Below, in pieces: positions 3,530-55,306 of a stretch of DNA of 56,100 bases. The translations under genes and the position numbers were made by a program. The stretch's first letter is position 1, and the number at the start of each line of letters is the position of its first letter. The notes under the pieces are model-generated. The model did not search any database, was not told where the DNA came from, and worked only from the letters and a program-made list of their open reading frames with translations. This DNA comes from Rozella allomycis CSF55. Lineage: Eukaryota. Location of the stretch: contig KE560559.1 in assembly GCA_000442015.1 (NCBI GenBank), positions 1-56,100 on the forward strand, written 5' to 3'.

Positions 3530-3779
3530 CTCCTTGAATTGATGTGGTCATTAAACGATATTTATCATTGGCTTTAATGTATGAAATTGGTAATTCAAAG
3601 TTCTATAAGTATATTATTCCTTTTCTTAATTATAATTTATGACACCATAATGCCCTGATCTTTATTCAACAATTAGCTTTCGCGTAAACAATCATTTATG
3701 ATTTTATTTCGTTACAACTTATTATTTGTATTTATCTTTAATATTTGATATCATATTATCTCGTTGTACTTACACTTAG

Positions 3780-6966: not shown

Positions 6967-9658
6967 TTATTTTTCATTTTCTTTTAAATCGCATCTAAGA
7001 CAATGATAAGGTTTTGACTGATGAGAAGATACACAATGCTGGTGATAAAAATGCTTGCAGATGAATAGAATGACATCTTCGTCAGAACATAGAATATTTT
7101 GGTGACAAATTTCACATTCATTACAACCTAAATAAATAATGTGCAACAATATACTTGAAACATGAATACCACGCCTTTGATCAAACGCAAGTCTGCGCAT
7201 TAGAGCTAGATAATCATTCAAGAAAATATTGTAGCAACCTTCTTGCAAGGAAAGCGAAATTTAGCGAGAAATGATTTCTTACTTGAAGACGATAATCGCT
7301 GAGAATTGAAAGCAAAGATTCTTTCAAATCTAAAATGTTCATCCCAGAAGGGATTTTTAAAACGACATTTTTTGCTTCTAATTTCCCGCCCAGATTGTGT
7401 AAAAGGGAGACGATAAATTCTGGTTTGTCTACCGAGTAGTTCACTAGATCTTCCCAAAGTTGATCATCTTCTTGTTCTTTGGCGAAATCTATTGCTGCCT
7501 GTGGATCTTTAATCTTTTCAATAATCAATTTCAATGCTTCCCTAAAATTCCCCATACGTCCAAGAAGGAAAATCATTTCTTCAGTTAAATCCAAAGACTT
7601 ACAAAGAGAAAAGGCCTTCTCTATTGAATAATAATTACTTGTGCGTAAAAACTGGATAATCTTTGGCCTATCTAGCTCACAATACAATTCCAATTGTAAA
7701 TCATGATATTTAAGTGCCACAGTAGAATCTTTCCAATAAATCTCATCTAAAAACTTTAAAAGACAATCTTTGTGTGTTTCTAAGCATTTAACAATTTTAT
7801 CAACCTGCATTACTGACCCTGGTCTAAAATTACTGAGAATTTTTCGTAATAATGAATAAGAAAATCTAAACCCATAGAGTTTTCAAACAAAAGTAATAAA
7901 TTTATATTATTTTCTATACAATCAAATAAATCGAATTGAAGAACAATTTTGAATACATCTGGATCCCTCAGCTTCAAATAACAAATTATTGCTTGTTCGT
8001 GCTGTCCATTAAGCGTTAACCTAAAATCAATTGAACTTATTTTTACAATTTGGCTAACGCAGTCAAAAGAATTTTATTATCTTGCTGGAATATCAAAGAT
8101 TCTTCCACTGCATTTATAAGCTCTGAAATGTTGTACAAAATGATTGGCCAAATCTTTATTGCTTCTAAAAACTCACTCTGGTTATTTTTTAAACAATCAT
8201 TCAAAATGGCTTGATAAACAGGAGGAGGCAATCTTGGATTATCCAATGGAATGTATGGCATTAACCAAAAACCATTTTGCCTATCGCAAAACTTTTTGAC
8301 CCAAATTTCCCAAAGTGCAGAATCGTCACTAAATATTACCGGGGTCATTCTAGCAGCTTCACTAAACTGACCTTACAACAGAGATGAAAGGAAAATACCT
8401 AAATCAAATGAATTTTCGAAATATTTTTCTCCTATTTGGATTAAAAGTAATCGATTGGTGTCTTTTTGTTGGTTTTGAGCTTTTATTTCAAGAATTGCTT
8501 TTTCATAAAGGTTATGTTGGCAAAGCCACTCGATGTGATCATCAAAACTTCGCGATGAACCAGAAATTATATCTCTTTCTCCAATAACATAAAATAATTC
8601 CCCTGATTGTAGAAATTCCATTTGATATCGAAAATTGGTTTGTTTGTAACTTGGTAGTAACAATACCTCATTTGAAATCTCATCTCCTTCAAAGTCCATT
8701 AGAATTATTTCTGGTCTTTGAATGTTTTCTTCAGGGGCAATCGACAAAATGCAAATCTTGCTCTGAAACAAACCCAAACCGTATGATTCAAAATCCCCGT
8801 GGAAACTTTTAGTAATTCGTACAATATTTTTCATTTTATTACTAAAATACTTGATTACTTTGATGAAACAAATTTGAATGTTATTCCCGTCGGCTATTAT
8901 CAAATTTCCATCCTTGTCCCATGCAATTTGACTGCATTCACTTGACTCGTCATTGATTACATTAATTCGTCCATTCGATAGATCAAACACTTTAATTTGC
9001 TTTACAAAATTTATATTTTTCTTACTTTGTCGATCCATGCGATAAAATTTTCCCTCCATTTGATCATTCTTACAGGCCCTTGACCATTGTGCAGAATCTT
9101 ATCTTTGTGGCCTAGCCAGCCTGTAATGAAAAACTTTTATCGTTACTCTTTTCATTTAAATACAAGTTTCCGTCAACCCCGCCAAACGCAAATGTCTTTG
9201 AACTAGAATAATTCGGTTCCAAAGAAATAGAAAGCAGAGGACTTCTTGAAAAATATTCATAAACATTGTTAGAATTTAAGGAATAAATGAACGCTTTTCC
9301 TGTTTTTTAAAACGTATAAATTTGTACCATCATCTCCACAAGAGGCTACGAATTCTTGTTTGCCATCAACATCGATACAATTCACTTTTGCAATATGTTT
9401 ATCAAACTTTTTTATTAGGTTCCCATCAAGGTCAAGAATTAAGATAGCTCCTCTGTCTGTCCCACACATTATGTATTTCTCAGACACTTTCAGTGACGTA
9501 AAGCTAGCAGATTTTTCATCCATCAATACTTTAAAACTTCCATCCAGTTTTTTATACTTTATTAATGGTTCATCAAAATCACCCATTTGAGATATGATGG
9601 TCTCTGGGTATTCATTTTCTATATCATGTTTGTTCGGTGAAATTGATTCTTTTTCCAT
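6967..9658 (-). CDS. VPS41: HOPS subunit Vps41 (WD40, CHCR repeat, RING-H2); at least 7 introns, one GT-CG
   Basis: EPLIKY; DDHIEWL; FLRTSNYYSIEKA; LLGRMGN; DDQLWEDL; C-terminal CxxC...CxHxYHxxC RING. Confidence 0.93.
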
Positions 9659-9702: not shown

Positions 9703-11479
9703 ATGGTTTTAGAAATCATTGATAAACTTATTACAGATGATAAACATGAAAGATTATATCCTTGGTAAGCAACTTTATTCTGTTGAAAATGGCCTTGGTC
9801 CTTGTCTAAAGTTTTAGAAACTTGTAGAGATTTTCCAAGCGGAGTCACACCTGCTATTTTAGCTTCTGAACTTGATCTAAAAGTAATTAATGTTATAAAA
9901 GATGAATCAAGTGGAAAAAGAATCACAGCTCTTCCGTTGAAGATAAGCCAGTTGAATTTACTATAAGAAAGACGTCCTTTCTTCAAAATACCAAAATTTG
10001 TAAATATTTGGACTTCATAACATAAAGTAATATGGGATTTTGATGAGCAAGACCAGCAAATGCTTGTTCATCAAAGGTTTTGCGCCTTTTGGTTTGAAAA
10101 TAAGGGGTTCTTTCAAAACAAGCGTAAAATACTAATGTTTCCATCAAAATTGCTCAAAAAGAAGAATGTTAATTTGTTTTCACCATCAGAAAACTTAATA
10201 TTCCTCCTCGAGCAATTAGGCGAAATGGATACACAATGGGTACGTTTCGTCTTCAAGCCAATTGAGCTACCGTCATCCGGAAATGCAAACATTATAATCC
10301 AAATTTTGAGTAAATCTAAAGAAGAAAACGTTGACGCTCTGAGAAAGAAAAGAATCATATTTGGACTTTATAACGATAACATCATATTGACGATAAATTT
10401 CTGGAACGATGATATTAAATCCACACATCTTTTCAAGAGAAATGAAACACTTGCTATTTATTCTGCATATTGCACCCTGGATTCAAATGGATCACCGATG
10501 GTCGATGTTACACCAATGAGCACCCTTTTTAAAATCGTAGACAACATAAAAGTTGAAAAATTTGACTCTTTTAACAAAAATATGAAGTATAATCCTGAAA
10601 GAACATTTATTTCGAATATTGAAGATTCAATGTCACATCTCTACCTTTTAGGGCAAATTACCGCGATATCGCCAGACATGCCAGTCATAGAAAACAATGA
10701 AGTCATTCATCGTAGAGTCTTGAGAATAATGGACACCTCAGGTAATATTATCTCTATTGATATTTTTTAGGCCAATGTGATGTAACTGTCTGGAGAAATT
10801 TAGCAAACAAAGTTGTTAACACATGCAACGTTGGTCACCTTGTTTTCCTTAATTCTGTAGAAACCCAAAAGTCCGATAATGGGGTACTTTATATTAATGT
10901 AATAGATTCTCCCAATTCTGCCATATATAATTGTAAGGCAAGTAGATTATGACTCTATTTAGTGTCAAAACTAGACGCTTTCCTGACATCCCCAAGTTTA
11001 AATTCGATCTCAACAAAATTGTCACAAGAAATCTGTAAAGTCCAATTGGCACAGATTAAATTTAAAAGCGTTAATTTAGAGTTGTCTACTGTAATATTTC
11101 GACACGACAATTGTCCACAAATATTTCAGCGCATGGCAAATCAGGAATGTGGGTTTTGCAGAAAAAAATTCATTGTTGCAAATATGAAATCATACTTTAA
11201 CATAAATGTCACCTTCACTTTCATGGGTGATGTGCATTCTGGAATTCTGGAGGATGATCCAGCCAGGGTATACAGATTTTCATTACCAAAATAAGAAAAT
11301 TCTAGATTGTCATCCAGCAGACTTTCATTACGAAACGTTAAAGGAGAAACAAAATGTTGTAGAGGAAAAAGTACTATTTAGAGAATATTTGAGTACTTTA
11401 ATAGTAAAATTTTGAAAAAAGTTGATAAAGGTGAATCCATCGAATTTACAGTCTTTTATCATTTCAAATATAAACTAAT
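9703..11479 (+). CDS. Multi-OB-fold protein of the fission-yeast Cdc24/plant CDC24_OB family (not the Cdc42 GEF); first intron GT-TG
   Basis: PWPWSLSKVLETCRDFPSGVTPAILASEL; LVHQRF; PSENLIFLL; OB strands LYLLGQI...LRIMDTSG.CDVTVW; C-terminal HxxC...CGFC zinc motif. Confidence 0.7.
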
Positions 11480-45778: not shown

Positions 45779-47515
<1,737 letters not shown>

Positions 47516-48217: not shown

Positions 48218-48493
48218 TTAGCGCCCAACTTCACTCTTCCCTTCAACCTTTAAGTTGTTCAAGCGTTCTTTATTGCGTCTTCCTAATACTCTCATTGTAT
48301 TGGTTTTCTCAGATTCAGTCATGTTATCCCAATTTGTAATTCTACTCATAGATCCATCCTCGTTGATAACAAGCGGTCCTAACGCATCTAGTCGAATATT
48401 CGATCCCACCTCGTGGTTATTATCAACATCTGAAGGCGCTGGTAGTCCTAATAAAGTGCCAGTTTCTGAAATATTCGATTGTGTTCCTGACAT
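48218..48493 (-). CDS. Conserved small hypothetical protein
   Basis: LDALGPLVINEDGSMSRITNWDNMTESEK...RVLGRRNKER, a motif I recall from an uncharacterised fungal/protist family. Confidence 0.75.
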   Translation of the reverse strand: MSGTQSNISETGTLLGLPAPSDVDNNHEVGSNIRLDALGPLVINEDGSMSRITNWDNMTESEKTNTMRVLGRRNKERLNNLKVEGKSEVGR

Positions 48494-48547
48494 GTGGCTT
48501 TGAACTTTGTAAAGGTTAAGAAAGAAACACTATAATTGTGATGAAAT

Positions 48548-49444
48548 TTATTTTTTCTGTGGGCTTAAAATACCTTCTAGTTGAGTCTATATTAACTTTG
48601 AAAAGGAAATACCTTCAATTGCAAGTTTGTCTTTTTCAAAAAGGCGATTTCTTCAGCATGCTTTCGTTCATCCATTGCGCGGCGTTCATTTTCTCTCTTT
48701 TCAATAGCTTCGCATTTAGCCTTCAATTCTGAGACTGAATGTTCAAGATTTTTCTTTTCTTCTTCTAATTGTTTGAGCTATTTATTTTTTTATTGTGCTG
48801 ATTACTTGGCTTTCCATTTCAGATTTTCCTTGTTCTGCTTGCAGCGCTTTTCTCATTCCAAAAGCAACACTTGACTCGTAAAGGGTTTGATAAGCGGCCA
48901 GAGTCATTCTGATTTCATCGCGAACTCTTAATAAAAGTAAACCACGTTCCTGGCATGTTATAGTTACTTGACGAATTAGTTCATCTTATTTAATTGTTTT
49001 AATCTTTGTACCAAAGCATTGGGAATACAATTCTCTTCTAATCGGACAAATTCCAGTCTCTCTTGCTTGCCTCTTTTGAAGCATATGATCTAATTGTTCC
49101 CATTATGTATTAACAGTGTAATTACTTGTAAATTGATTACATCTAATCTTGTGGCTGGAGTAGAGCTAACTTGTTGAACCCAGAACTGACCATTTTCATC
49201 CCATTCCCTATTTAATTTGAAGTGTAATGTTTTACTTTGGGGGTAGAATAGAATTTAGGATATCTTCTGTGGTAGCTGTTGGTTGTTGTAAATTTTTTAG
49301 TTTTTCATCCTTTGTTGGCGACGAGGGAGGCAATTGAGACTTTTTTGGTTCTGTTTGTTTTTGTGGTAATTTAGAGTTATCTGTGGCTTTTGAAACGAGT
49401 ACGGGATTATCATATTTGATCAATGATTGACCGATATGTAACAT
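48548..49444 (-). CDS. DNALI1: Axonemal inner-arm dynein light chain p28; 5 introns, one GT-GG
   Basis: SLIKYDNPVLVS; EDILNSILPP; VSSTPATRLDV; RQARETGICPIRRELYSQCFDELIRQVT; YESSVAFGMRKAL. Confidence 0.96.
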
Positions 49445-49617: not shown

Positions 49618-52600
49618 TTAATATTTATTTTCAGTGCTACTTTTATATTTTATTTTCATTCTTGCTATTGATTGAGGATCAATGCTTCCACGAATGCCTA
49701 ACAAGGCTTTCCCAACAGCTTGAGTGATACCAATTGCCGGTTTAAGGACGACCACTGGAAGAGATTTTAAAACAAGTTTCAATGAAACCTTAAATGCGTA
49801 TTTTTTTAATACTTTACTGAATCAGTCTGAGGCACAGCCAAGACAATGCTGGATGCCTCTTTCATTCCTTTGGAAAGAGACTTGTAAGCTTGAATGAAGC
49901 CTTTTGAAAATAAGATAATAATTTACCTTGAAGAGCGTTTTGTGGTGGTGAAGCGAATTTACTTTGCCGCTGCAAGTCGTGGCCCGTTAGAATTCTTTCA
50001 ATTTGATCCAAAAACGTTTCAGTAGAGACAACCATTGAAGTTCCAAGTTTTAAAACTTCATTTGAAGCTGATTTTGTAAACGAAGATAACCCCTTTTTAA
50101 TAGCTTTTAATAGATCGCCGTGTTCTTTGAAGGATTCAACTGGCAAAATGATTAAATCAACGAGACCCTTGCCTATATTTATAGCTGATTTAAAAGGATA
50201 AATAGCCTGAAGAATTCCAGTGATTTCACATTTGTTAATTTCATCCATCCAAGCGTCCATTAAAGTTTCTACTAAATTTTGAATCCCATGAATGCCACTA
50301 ATTCTTAATTTGCCAAGATTAATTCCAGCATTTTCCAATCTTAACAAATTAAATAATTCTGAAAGATTTCCTTCCTTTAAGGATGCAATGTCTATTCCTT
50401 TGGGTTTATAATCAACAGTTAAAGAAATTGGACTAATTTCAACAAGATCTACAATTTATAATAAAATAAATTTAATACTAAAATAAATTCCATTTCCAGA
50501 TGATTCAGAGCTACTTGATGAATAACTGAAAAAGTTTATTAAGAATTTTAGAGTATCCTGGTCCAAATGAACAATCAAAGGGTTTATTTCACACTTTTAA
50601 TAATTAATTTGTATTTTACTTTCAAATTCTTGTCAAAATTACCAAATTCCTGAATGGTAATGTTTAACAGGGGTTGATCATGCATTTCAGAAAACAATAA
50701 AGTTTTCCATAGAGAAGAAGGGATGTTGTCTAAAATTTCCATATTTTTAATTTTGATCGATAGAATAGAATTTGGAGAATTTGTAGATTGTAGAGCCCCC
50801 AAAGAGAATGATGTTTGGTTGATGGATAATCCAAAAATATCAAAAATGACTGAGCCTAAAGAAGGATTGAATGTTTCCTTGACAGAAGAATGTTTTAGTG
50901 GAATTGCTTCAGCGGGAGAAATGAAGCAAATGTCGTCTGATTCATTTTCCATTGTTGGATTGAGGGTTGCAGTAGATTGTAATTCTTCCAACAAGACAAA
51001 ACTATTCTGCCAATCAAACCCCTGTCTTAATTCAATTTTAACATTTAAATCTTCAGCCAACAAAATCTTTAAAGGAATTTCACAAAATAGATTATCCGAA
51101 AAGTGGGATTCATTCAAATCCAAATTTAGATTTTCACTACCATTAGTGACAGAGTTTTTAATATTAGAGTTTTCAACATTATAGTCTTCTTTGCAGACTT
51201 TATTAAATGAATTTTTTAATTCCCAATCAAATTCATTAATGGAATTAACAAACCTTGTTTCGTCCAACTCTAAATTACTTAATGTTAAATCCTTTGGCTC
51301 TTCAACTTTGAAAGGTTCCAAATTATCCAACACGCCCATCAAAGGATAAGATTTACTCATTTCAATTTGTAATTTTTCATTTATTTCACCTTTATATTCA
51401 TAATTATTTATTTCTTCTTTATTTCCATCGCTATTTTTATCTTTTTTCAAAATAACTTCAGTGGCTATGGAAATCAAAGAATGTAGACTGTCGGCACAAA
51501 CCGAAATTTCCAGATTGTGATTTGAAATTTTAATCATCGATTTTTCAACAAGAAAAGACATATAATCATCTCTTGCAACTTTAATGTAACCCATTTCCTA
51601 TAAATATTACAAAATTTGTCTATTTACTTGTAGCCCATCAATGGTTGACAAACCTGAATCAGATTCAAGCAAGAATTGTTTATCATCAATGAGAAATAAA
51701 TTAAAATTTTGAAATACAATACTTTTATTACTTTTATTAATTGAAATCTTAAAGTTTTAATTGAAATAATTTACATTTGATAAATCAAAATAGAAAAGTA
51801 AATTTCCAAAACAAGAATCATATTCGATTGTAAAATCATTCAATTGTAAACGCAATGGGAATTCAAATCCAAACGATCCATTTTCAGTCAATTTATATAC
51901 AAAGTGACTGTTTGTCAATGAAATATAAAATTCATTATTTATAAATGTAAAAATTAGTCGATCTTTAGAATATCTTTGTCTCTTTGATTGAAATTGGCTT
52001 TCTCTCAACACAACTTGATTTTGCTTTTCTATAACTATCTTGGAACTCACAAATTTTAATGAATTTTCTTTCAAAGAATATCCAATAATTGAATCTTTTA
52101 AATAAACATCAAACTCATTTGTTGCAAAATGAACTATAATTTGAATTTCTGAAATTTACTATTTTGACATAGAAAGGAAAACACAACTGCAATCGAATCA
52201 ACATCAGATCCAACATCAGAAGCAACTTCAATATCAAAAGAAATATTATTTTGCATTCCTTCTATGTCGAATACTTTAAAATCAAAAAATATGTTGGGAA
52301 TGTCAATTTGTATGAAATATTTCTGTATCAATGTTAAATATTCAATACCGAATTGTTAGACAAACTTTTCAATTCTCTAATCAAATCTTCTCTAGAATTA
52401 ATTTCTCTTTTGAAATTTATTTTATTAGAATTATTTAAACTGAAACTGATAAAGGATTTGGCGCCATTTGTTGAAAATGAATTACAGAAAATTCTCTCAT
52501 CAATTGAAGCCCTCAAACTATCAAATGAAAAAACAAGCGGCAAATTCAACGAAATGCTCACATTGCCAAAAAATAATTGATATCTTTGAAATAAAATTAT

Positions 52601-53988
52601 TGAATTTACTTGTGAATGTCAAAGTCAACCAACAACTCAAAACTTGGCAAAATCAATTTAATTTCAGTGCCATTTTGATTCTCATTTGACATTTGTTTAA
52701 AACTCTTGGAAAGGTTTCCAATTCTCTCTAAAACATTTTCTGTCAAATGAAAAAATACAGAATCCAATTCAACTTTAATCAAATTATGGTCCATTACATC
52801 TCCTCGTTAAATTTATTAATCTCAATTACGAGTCGCAACAAATTGTGGAAATTTCGCATTTCTAAATTCAAGCAAGGGTGAATCATCCAAAAATACTGAA
52901 ATTTTATTTGATATAAATTCATTTAATTCTCCACACATCAAAATACAATCTTCAAATTCAAAATAAAATTCAGAAATTTTAATCTTTAACAGTTTAGATT
53001 TAACCGTCAAGTTGAGAAATGATTCAGTTCTCAAATTGTACGTTGAATTCACAAGCGAAAGATAATTTGGATCTTCTTCATACTCAATCGATTCATTGTA
53101 CAACGCTGTATGAAATGAAGCCAACGATGCTAAACTCTCTCTCATCCAAATTTCTGCTCCTCCAATTCCTTTTCTTCTTTGAAATGAATTTGTCAAATTA
53201 ATCAATTTAATGATATCATCGATTGAAGCATTAATTTGTGGATCATTAACCGTAGCGTTAACATCTACATGACCATTCAAGTGCATTCTCAAGGTGCTCC
53301 CCAAAGACTTTGCCGATAAAATAGTCTTTTCATTCAGCTTTACATTGATTTCTTTCATTTCAACATTAAATGAATTGCTAGATTTAATCCTAGTAATATT
53401 AATATGATCAATTTCCACAGAAATGGTTTGACTCTCCAACCTTATATTAATTCTCAAATTATGCAATTTTAGAAAGAGCTTATCTATTATTTGATCTATC
53501 CACTCGCTCACTGATTTAATGACATGTTCAGTTTCCATCATTTCTTCATTCTCCGATTCTTCATATTGAAATGTATAGTCAAAGAATGGATCTCTCAATA
53601 TCACATCATCTTTCTCTATAACTCTTTCTTCATCCGTCTTTGCGGTGAACAAAATATCAATATTCTTCAAACACAACGATATTGATTCCCCAGTATCGCT
53701 CCACAAACTTGTCCAAGGAATAGAAAACTCGGCTGTTTCTACACTTCCTTTTTCATACTTTAAAAACTCACTATCAGTAAACAACTAGGAAAAAGATCCA
53801 AAAAGATGTACTTTGGGGTTGATTTTCAAGCCATTCAAGTGTAATTTACCACTCGTAAGCTGCAAAGACAATTCATGTGTATCTGGAATTCCAATCAACA
53901 ATTTGCCAATAATGCGTTCAAGTAAGAATTTTATAAATTGGTTCTGCTTGAAATAAATGTAACAACATACCTGAGATGCCTTGATCAT
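49618..53988 (-). CDS. ATG2: Autophagy lipid-transfer protein Atg2; about 13 introns
   Basis: Chorein-N region (FLLERIIGKLL...SIPWTSLW); VCADSLHSL; HLDQDTLKFL; VDYKPKGID; NIGKGLVDLIILP; SKFASPP; VVVLKPAIG...LLGIRGSIDP. Confidence 0.9.
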
Positions 53989-54637: not shown

Positions 54638-55306
54638 ATGCTGAAATTCGCCAATATCAACTCTGTTGCATTTTTACTTTGCGATATCCAAGAGAAATTT
54701 AGACCAGCTATATATGATTTTAATAGCGTCGTGCGTGTTGCTGATAGAATGGTATTTGTAAACGCGAAATATTTCTAGGTCAAAGCTGCTTCAATTTTAA
54801 AGCGTCCATTAATTGTTACTGAACAAGTAATTTCACATCTTTCTTTAGAACAGTATCCAAAAGGTTTAGGCTCAACAGTAAAAGAAATTGACATCAAGTC
54901 CGCAAAACTATTTTCCAAAACCAAATTCTCGATGCTCACAGATGACGTGAAGAAGGAAATAGCTAATATTAACGATATTTGCCTATTTGGCATCGAGGTA
55001 ATTATTTGCTTTATGATTAAATGTCACATGTTTGTGTTTACCAAACGGCATTTGATTTATTGAATGAGGGAAAAAATGTCTTTTTATTAGCAGATGGCAT
55101 AAGTTCCAGATATAAAGAGGAAAAATATTTGGCCTTGTCAGTAACAGAGAGACTTAAAGCAACACTAGCAATTACAACATGCAGGGGCCCAAGTAATTTC
55201 AAGCGAATGCCTTTTATTCCAATTGTTAAAGGGTTCGGACCATCCAAACTTTAAGGATATATCAAATTTAGTTAAGAGCACTGACCCCATTAAAATAAAC
55301 TCTTGA
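54638..55306 (+). CDS. Isochorismatase-domain protein (ISOC1/2-like); 4 introns, one GT-TG
   Basis: LCDIQEKFRPAI; VTEQYPKGLGST; KTKFSM; FGIESHVCVYQT; DGISSR; SECLLFQL..HPNFK. Confidence 0.93.

Follow-up and report, generated by a model that had tools for sequence, protein, structure and literature searches.

Can an intron that closes with GG be spliced productively in a wild-type eukaryote? The question is raised by the fungal parasite Rozella allomycis CSF55, whose only DNALI1/p28 gene has six exons and five introns (28, 26, 27, 28 and 26 nucleotides, nt) on the minus strand of the window, the 56,100-nt stretch analysed here (positions 1 to 56,100 of contig KE560559.1, assembly GCA_000442015.1). 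Introns 1, 3, 4 and 5 are all GT-AG; intron 2 alone is GT-GG. The AG at the end of introns is one of the firmest rules of eukaryotic genes, and exceptions are rare or lie beside a true AG. In the reading that we consider probable, intron 2 would be a working U2-type GT-GG mini-intron, and the gene would make a full-length p28 of 253 amino acids.

Structure of the DNALI1 gene and its second intron

The features of the gene are as follows, all on the minus strand; +n counts from the first base of an intron, and P0002, P0003 and P0121 are public protein records.

49236..49444, minus: exon 1, with its ATG at 49444; the N-terminus matches P0002 and P0003
49208..49235, minus: intron 1, 28 nt, GT-AG, A at +23
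49126..49207, minus: exon 2, ending in ...RLDVINLQ; PF10211 positions 12-38
49100..49125, minus: predicted intron 2, 26 nt, GT-GG, phase 0; called blind by the gene finder, margins 6.0 and 6.3 nats
49122..49125, minus: GTAA donor of intron 2, the commonest Rozella donor (676/954 AG introns)
49103, minus: A at +23 of intron 2, candidate branch adenosine at the genome-wide A23 peak, 3 nt before the intron end
49100..49101, minus: putative GG acceptor of intron 2 (G replaces the A at -2, G at -1 is kept, T at -3), read in the window and in three contig sets
49089..49091, minus: first AG downstream of intron 2, out of frame (ends at 49090, intron length 36)
49073..49099, minus: 27 nt coding for EQLDHMLQK, omitted by both public models via the in-frame AG ending at 49073
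49012..49099, minus: exon 3; PF10211 positions 39-67
48985..49011, minus: intron 3, 27 nt, GT-AG, A at +23
48806..48984, minus: exon 4; PF10211 positions 68-127
48778..48805, minus: intron 4, 28 nt, GT-AG, A at +23
48613..48777, minus: exon 5; PF10211 positions 129-182
48587..48612, minus: intron 5, 26 nt, GT-AG, A at +23
48548..48586, minus: exon 6 with the stop codon; chytrid-like C-terminus

Intron 2 opens with GTAA and closes with TGG, and lies between the codons for ...RLDVINLQ and those for EQLDHMLQK... The original prediction held that a 26-nt intron ends here in GG, that its excision restores the conserved LQEQLD segment exactly and that its retention shifts the frame; at the level of the DNA sequence, all three claims agree with the present analysis. 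After removal of intron 2, positions 12-38 of the Pfam profile PF10211 (Ax_dynein_light) in exon 2 meet positions 39-67 in exon 3 without a gap, and four exons match positions 12-182 of the profile in order. If the intron is retained, translation stops after residue 108, and the alternative ends at TG +25, GG +27 and AG +36 likewise shift the frame. The six joined exons encode 253 residues and one stop; the product matches the DNALI1 chains in the PDB with an E value of 1e-85, and its C-terminus resembles those of chytrid orthologues. The peptide predicted across the GG-spliced junction of exons 2 and 3 is LDVINLQEQLDHMLQK.

The original prediction also held that no canonical rescue exists nearby, and in this it overlooked an in-frame AG ending at 49073, which gives a 53-nt GT-AG intron and deletes the nine residues EQLDHMLQK. 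Both public gene models (P0002 and P0121) chose this AG. Among the in-frame GT/GC-AG pairs listed, 0/32 keep the whole conserved segment. In a set of 121 homologous proteins, 71 contained both anchors that flank this segment; the spacer between them is 16 residues long in 69 and 7 residues long in two, which are the Rozella public models themselves. The nine residues are identical in 11 of the 69 non-Rozella homologues, and when the 27 nt were shuffled 100,000 times, the best match reached 5/9 residues and never 6/9. Alignment of the public model with the solved DNALI1 chains likewise leaves a nine-residue gap. Together these results indicate that the 27 nt are coding, or were so until very recently. 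Since all 69 of the other anchored homologues keep the residues, the GG is favoured over the AG at +53.

Apart from the DNALI1 gene, the PF10211 search for further p28 copies returned one weak, distant match (E 1e-5), located on another contig; the idea that this copy is dispensable owing to a paralogue was therefore rejected. Rozella has at least 12 dynein heavy-chain loci. The public DNALI1 models are 331 and 335 amino acids long, against 253 in the reconstruction presented here. At window 48218-48586 (minus), both skip the true last exon and read into the next open reading frame.

A predicted genome-wide class of mini-introns ending in TG, GG or CG

A self-trained gene finder was trained on genome stretches with introns restricted to AG ends and then allowed the 15 non-AG ends at equal prior. 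It covered 752 kilobases (kb) and 1,369 introns in total: a first set of 559 kb, including the window, with 1,018 introns in genes of at least 150 codons, and a held-out set of 193 kb with 351 introns. The AG introns revealed a distance ruler. An A stands at +23 from the donor in 714/964 AG introns, against 30-41% at neighbouring positions; this A23 peak holds at each intron length from 26 to 30 and reaches a fraction of 0.79 in held-out DNA. An AG that ends at +24 or +25 is skipped (56/964 and 27/738), and the intron ends at the first AG from +26 onwards in 330/331 and 965/976 AG introns. The typical range is 26-33 nt, with 1,307 of 1,339 AG introns no longer than 33 nt and just 2/881 introns shorter than 26 nt. 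Of 14 calls between 34 and 60 nt, six combine A23 with an in-frame TG, whereas three are tandem mini-introns; simple introns of this length number at most 5/1,339. All five DNALI1 introns carry A23. In intron 2 the bases after it are T, G and G, and the first AG comes at +36; scored without its last two bases, this intron stands at the 69th percentile of the AG introns.

When non-AG ends were allowed, the first set yielded 32 non-AG calls, 19 of them ending in G and DNALI1 intron 2 among them, called blind with the margin of 6.0 nats. The held-out set yielded 10, the five highest ending in G and the five lowest not. Across both sets, 24/42 non-AG calls end in G, compared with 12-14% in a simulation with random ends, which recovered 125 of 300 (42%). 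In each of the 15 calls with a margin of at least 5, a TG, GG or CG lies in frame at 26-31 nt (it is the called end in 12 and one codon away from it in three); the null expectation from the wrong frames of true introns is 507/1,863 (27%), giving a p value of 3e-9. In-frame A-H ends, in which A is kept at -2 and G is lost at -1, are not enriched (5/15 strong calls against a null of 46%) and are never the sole end. As no strong call has an A-H end alone, the loss is at -2 and not at -1. Calls with an in-frame BG end (TG, GG or CG) number 29/1,369, or 2.1% (20 TG, seven GG and two CG); corrected for the 42% recovery, the share may be about 5% of introns. The class is defined by a length of 26-31 nt, a GTA donor, an A at +23, G kept at -1 and no AG in the normal range, and DNALI1 intron 2 has all of these properties. 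The GG end is therefore not the isolated oddity that it was first taken to be.

A strict rule that the intron ends at the first G from +26 was rejected, as it is inconsistent with the background level of G upstream of used AGs. Building A23 into a second model made the acceptor calls no sharper. Some further calls ending in letters other than G were mis-calls (a U12-type AT-AC intron, a two-gene fusion and an assembly duplication).

Homology was examined at 25 non-AG junctions with Pfam and 20 with NCBIfam, most of which have no family on both sides. In the Pfam scan, 5/25 junctions match one family on both sides: one exactly (CG), one exactly with TG and off by one with GG, one imprecisely, one favouring AC, and one with a normal AG intron and a frame problem. 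In the NCBIfam scan, 2/20 were informative and both were exact. In HMG-CoA lyase, residues 138 and 140 of a solved chain flank the codon split by a 27-nt GT-TG intron, with no in-frame AG below 60 nt. The 28-nt GT-TG intron of an M18 aminopeptidase also gives an exact homology match, and across the 26-nt GT-CG intron of a DUF846 protein profile position 79 is followed by 80. In a PGAP2IP-like gene the TG at 29 fits, and the GG at 26 is off by one residue.

Two side observations concern intron structure. In an FAD-oxidase gene (locus L026, 1221-1450), a frame change unexplained by introns occurs within about 12 codons after a normal 27-nt GT-AG intron. In the Prp8 gene (locus L031, 8786-8841, minus), two directly adjoining GT-AG units of 28 nt each make up a 56-nt intron; the 32 long calls include six tandems of this kind, which suggest stepwise removal.

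Proposed mechanism and splicing factors

Published work is cited here by PMC or preprint number, and what is drawn from it applies to the parts of each source covered. Structures of the spliceosome show G-1 paired with G+1, and A-2 with the branch adenosine (PMC12707134). The major spliceosome of Rozella may work largely by distance, with A23 as the probable branch point; where no AG is in reach, splicing would fall to a TG, GG or CG located between +26 and about +31. BG ends would serve in such places because the reaction would require the last G, as partner of the first, but could do without the A at -2, the partner of the branch A. A GG end would keep the first pair and lose the second. In a 26-nt intron with its branch at A23, a single base would separate the branch from -2, and the pair may be hard to form and cheap to lose. 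In DNALI1 intron 2, with the first AG at +36, the GG at +26 would be the productive site; GG +27, AG +36 and retention would give frameshifted by-products, and AG +53 a possible minor isoform.

Loss of a second-step splicing factor was considered as the cause and rejected, as Prp18, Slu7, Prp8 and Fyv6/FAM192A were all found, together with U2 snRNA; a protein with two zinc fingers is presumably U2AF1. Prp18 matches PF02840 positions 3-142 in three pieces. Its conserved loop reads GVMGPINLNERHARDLI against the consensus GVTMVGIHERSAREKI: it is one residue longer and lacks the T, V-G and H of the stretch corresponding to yeast T198-H203. An H-x-R at the consensus spacing occurs in 133/144 non-Rozella Prp18 sequences (145/150 hits had the anchor), a comparison made, like that for Prp8 below, with the closest hits and so biased toward conservation; the remaining 11/144 are presumably mis-spliced models. 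Rozella Prp8 carries S at both yeast positions 1578 and 1618 (A1578S, N1618S), where 119/119 other sequences have A and N. It departs from 4/292 near-invariant columns, and 4/40 comparable sequences depart more often. Yeast Prp8 alleles that permit non-consensus 3' splice sites lie at 1575, 1576 and 1609 (PMC12707134). A yeast Prp8 suppressor at 1618 itself was looked for, with no occurrence, and forms no part of the argument. The remodelled Prp18 loop and the two Prp8 changes flanking the alpha-finger might permit a relaxed -2 position, but as causes they are speculative leads drawn from protein comparison.

The altered loop is common to both Rozella Prp18 records. These records differ in one place (ASFAY against ANDAY), where the gene (locus L008, about 1750-1770) has a short inverted repeat whose centre, when flipped, gives the other form; the difference is either a micro-inversion allele or an assembly artefact. 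The Prp8 model is broken by local assembly errors in its gene (locus L031, about 7100-8340), where duplicated pieces are joined by single N letters.

Rozella may also possess a minor spliceosome. A cullin gene (locus L053, about 3680-3745, minus) contains an AT-AC intron of U12 type that has both the donor and the branch motif, locus L110 holds a candidate U12 snRNA scoring below the cut-off, and the protein of locus L087 is presumably ZRSR2-like; together these point to one. The U12 consensus is RTATCCTT at the donor and TCCTTAAC at the branch, and both are seen in the cullin intron. Neither motif occurs in the 26 nt of intron 2.

Points against a working GT-GG intron and rival explanations

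Several results weigh against a working GT-GG intron. The second-step factors searched are all present, and Rozella Prp8 keeps Q1594; in yeast Prp8 Q1594A, use of non-YAG sites requires Prp18. G shows no depletion in the 3-5 nt ahead of used AGs (41/328, 15/124 and 5/49, background 12%), which makes BG sites weak competitors whose splicing may be inefficient; by the same token, AG would win when in reach and BG would be a fallback. If A23 is the branch, it lies 3 nt from the intron end, against a shortest distance of 7-8 nt in budding yeasts (PMC10711555). The held-out set is weak by itself (first G in frame in 5/10, p 0.21), the second model gave only 4/8 calls ending in G, and in an FHA gene a 26-nt AC end fits the Pfam family better than a 29-nt TG. 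At the level of DNA, R. allomycis is reported to be triploid (PMC6784888, PMC9457484), run X7 has three letters within 1.5 kb that differ from runs X1-X3, and contigs can mask single-base alleles.

Among rival explanations, an error in place of AG is scarcely credible. The assembly does contain local errors elsewhere, as the duplicated pieces with N in Prp8 demonstrate, but the window is free of N letters and the GG site is covered by contigs of runs X1, X2 and X3 at word depths of 871, 226 and 284 with no alternative letter; all three runs are marked as possible sources of the assembly, and their agreement rules out an assembly slip without representing independent isolates. Run X7 contigs stop short of the site. 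A greater, though still small, probability is given to the view that a recent mutation turned the acceptor into GG on two of the three chromosome copies, or on all of them, so that the gene is damaged and p28 is supplied by a hidden AG allele or by nothing. A-to-G is a single transition of the kind that contigs drop in one allele, and in a triploid (PMC6784888) an AG allele could still be hidden on one copy. A second haplotype, which fits triploidy, occurs 650 nt away in run X3 (window 49752-49863, depth 88 against 191, eight differences), and the differing letters of X7 are also nearby. Random damage, however, would strike G-1 as often as A-2, and no strong call has an A-H end alone. The BG class, at least 29/1,369 introns, appears far beyond what scattered alleles would give; the second public model likewise avoids an AG here, and the remainder of the DNALI1 gene is intact.

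Use of the 53-nt intron, with a p28 lacking nine residues, is improbable, more so than a damaged acceptor. This intron is canonical GT-AG, in frame and adopted by P0002 and P0121. Yet the deletion occurs in 0/69 other homologues and leaves the gap against the solved chains, the 27 nt are conserved as protein, and the 53-nt form skips the AG at +36, whereas AG introns almost always end at the first AG from +26 and simple introns of 34-60 nt are exceedingly few. Less probable again is some other non-AG end or RNA editing: a GT-AA intron ending at +29 (which loses E) or +23 (which adds W), splicing by a U12-type reaction, or a transcript repaired from G to A. AA is in frame at both places, GT-AA and U12-type GT-GG introns are known elsewhere (PMC4528330, PMC1557818), and Rozella has the U12 snRNA candidate and the AT-AC intron. 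The E, however, is present in all 69 spacers, introns below 26 nt are nearly absent, intron 2 lacks the U12 donor and branch motifs, and editing is unnecessary for a class with TG, GG and CG ends alike.

Comparison with known systems

A close parallel to a GT-GG intron 2 is found in yeast. Saccharomyces cerevisiae cells that lack Prp18, or carry a deletion of its loop S187-I211, splice to BG sites, with UGG among the best used; as proposed for Rozella, these sites are U2-type, end in UG, GG or CG, keep G-1 and are chosen close to the branch (PMC10711555). In yeast, however, the cells are mutant and the BG site is an alternative beside a normal AG, whereas in Rozella the genome is wild-type, the BG site would be the sole productive acceptor, and Prp18 is present with an altered loop. 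Human TG-AG tandem acceptors are likewise non-AG sites with G-1 in U2-dependent introns (PMC2374985). According to the part of that report covered, human TG sites are never the sole acceptor, unlike our reading of DNALI1 intron 2, where the first AG lies 10 nt past the GG and out of frame and the in-frame AG, 27 nt past it, deletes conserved residues.

Rare Drosophila introns have the same ends (GT-GG, GT-TG and GT-CG); six GT-GG introns are annotated, five with junction reads, and 5/6 have a similar alternative splice (PMC4528330). In Ganoderma, GT-GG accounts for 0.04% and GT-TG for 0.02% of introns (PMC11590231), against at least 2.1% called as BG in Rozella. The U12-type GT-GG introns of ARAF and SLC12A7 share the ends of intron 2 but have U12 donor and branch signals (PMC1557818). 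Introns below 30 nt, as in Rozella, occur in myxozoans and Dicyema (PMC13644364) and in Paramecium (PMC12862383). In longer myxozoan introns the A residues lie further from the AG, that is, at a place fixed from the donor, like A23, and Dicyema introns are described as having a comparable pattern (PMC13644364). The ultra-short introns of these two reports have GT-AG ends, with no relaxed -2 reported in the parts covered. In the literature searched, which left subscription journals and supplements outside its coverage, no paper on non-AG acceptors in Rozella was found, and the Rozella passages of PMC8476143 and bioRxiv 10.1101/2022.09.24.509304 are silent on them.

A wider proposal is tentative, and we give it clearly less credence than the GT-GG reading of intron 2 itself. 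In this proposal, the wild-type Rozella spliceosome would set its branch 22 nt from the donor and could ligate no more than 3 nt beyond it; recognition of the A at -2 would be lost, about 1/20 introns would have TG, GG or CG as their sole acceptor, and the Prp18 loop with Prp8 A1578S/N1618S would be natural counterparts of yeast fidelity mutants, whose transfer to yeast would relax -2 selection. If true, 2-5% of introns on BG ends would be a natural test of the pair between the -2 A and the branch A, the Prp18 loop and the Prp8 alpha-finger in the fidelity of 3' splice sites. The public Rozella gene models, which are widely used as the deepest fungal branch, may by extrapolation be miscut at hundreds of places, as both DNALI1 models are. 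DNALI1 adds an unusually clean BG case in a nearly invariant flagellar protein, together with two protein-level leads.

Other features of the window

Neighbouring genes of DNALI1 are presumably a UDP-glucose pyrophosphorylase gene (45779-47515, minus) and an ATG2-like gene (49618-53988, minus), names that we take from their translations; every modelled intron in both is GT-AG. A gene matching CDC24_OB1 contains a 27-nt GT-TG intron with A23 (9765-9791, plus), called with a margin of 4.5 and with its first AG at +47. A 26-nt GT-TG stretch with A23 lies at 54998-55023 (plus), in a gene outside the gene-finder models.
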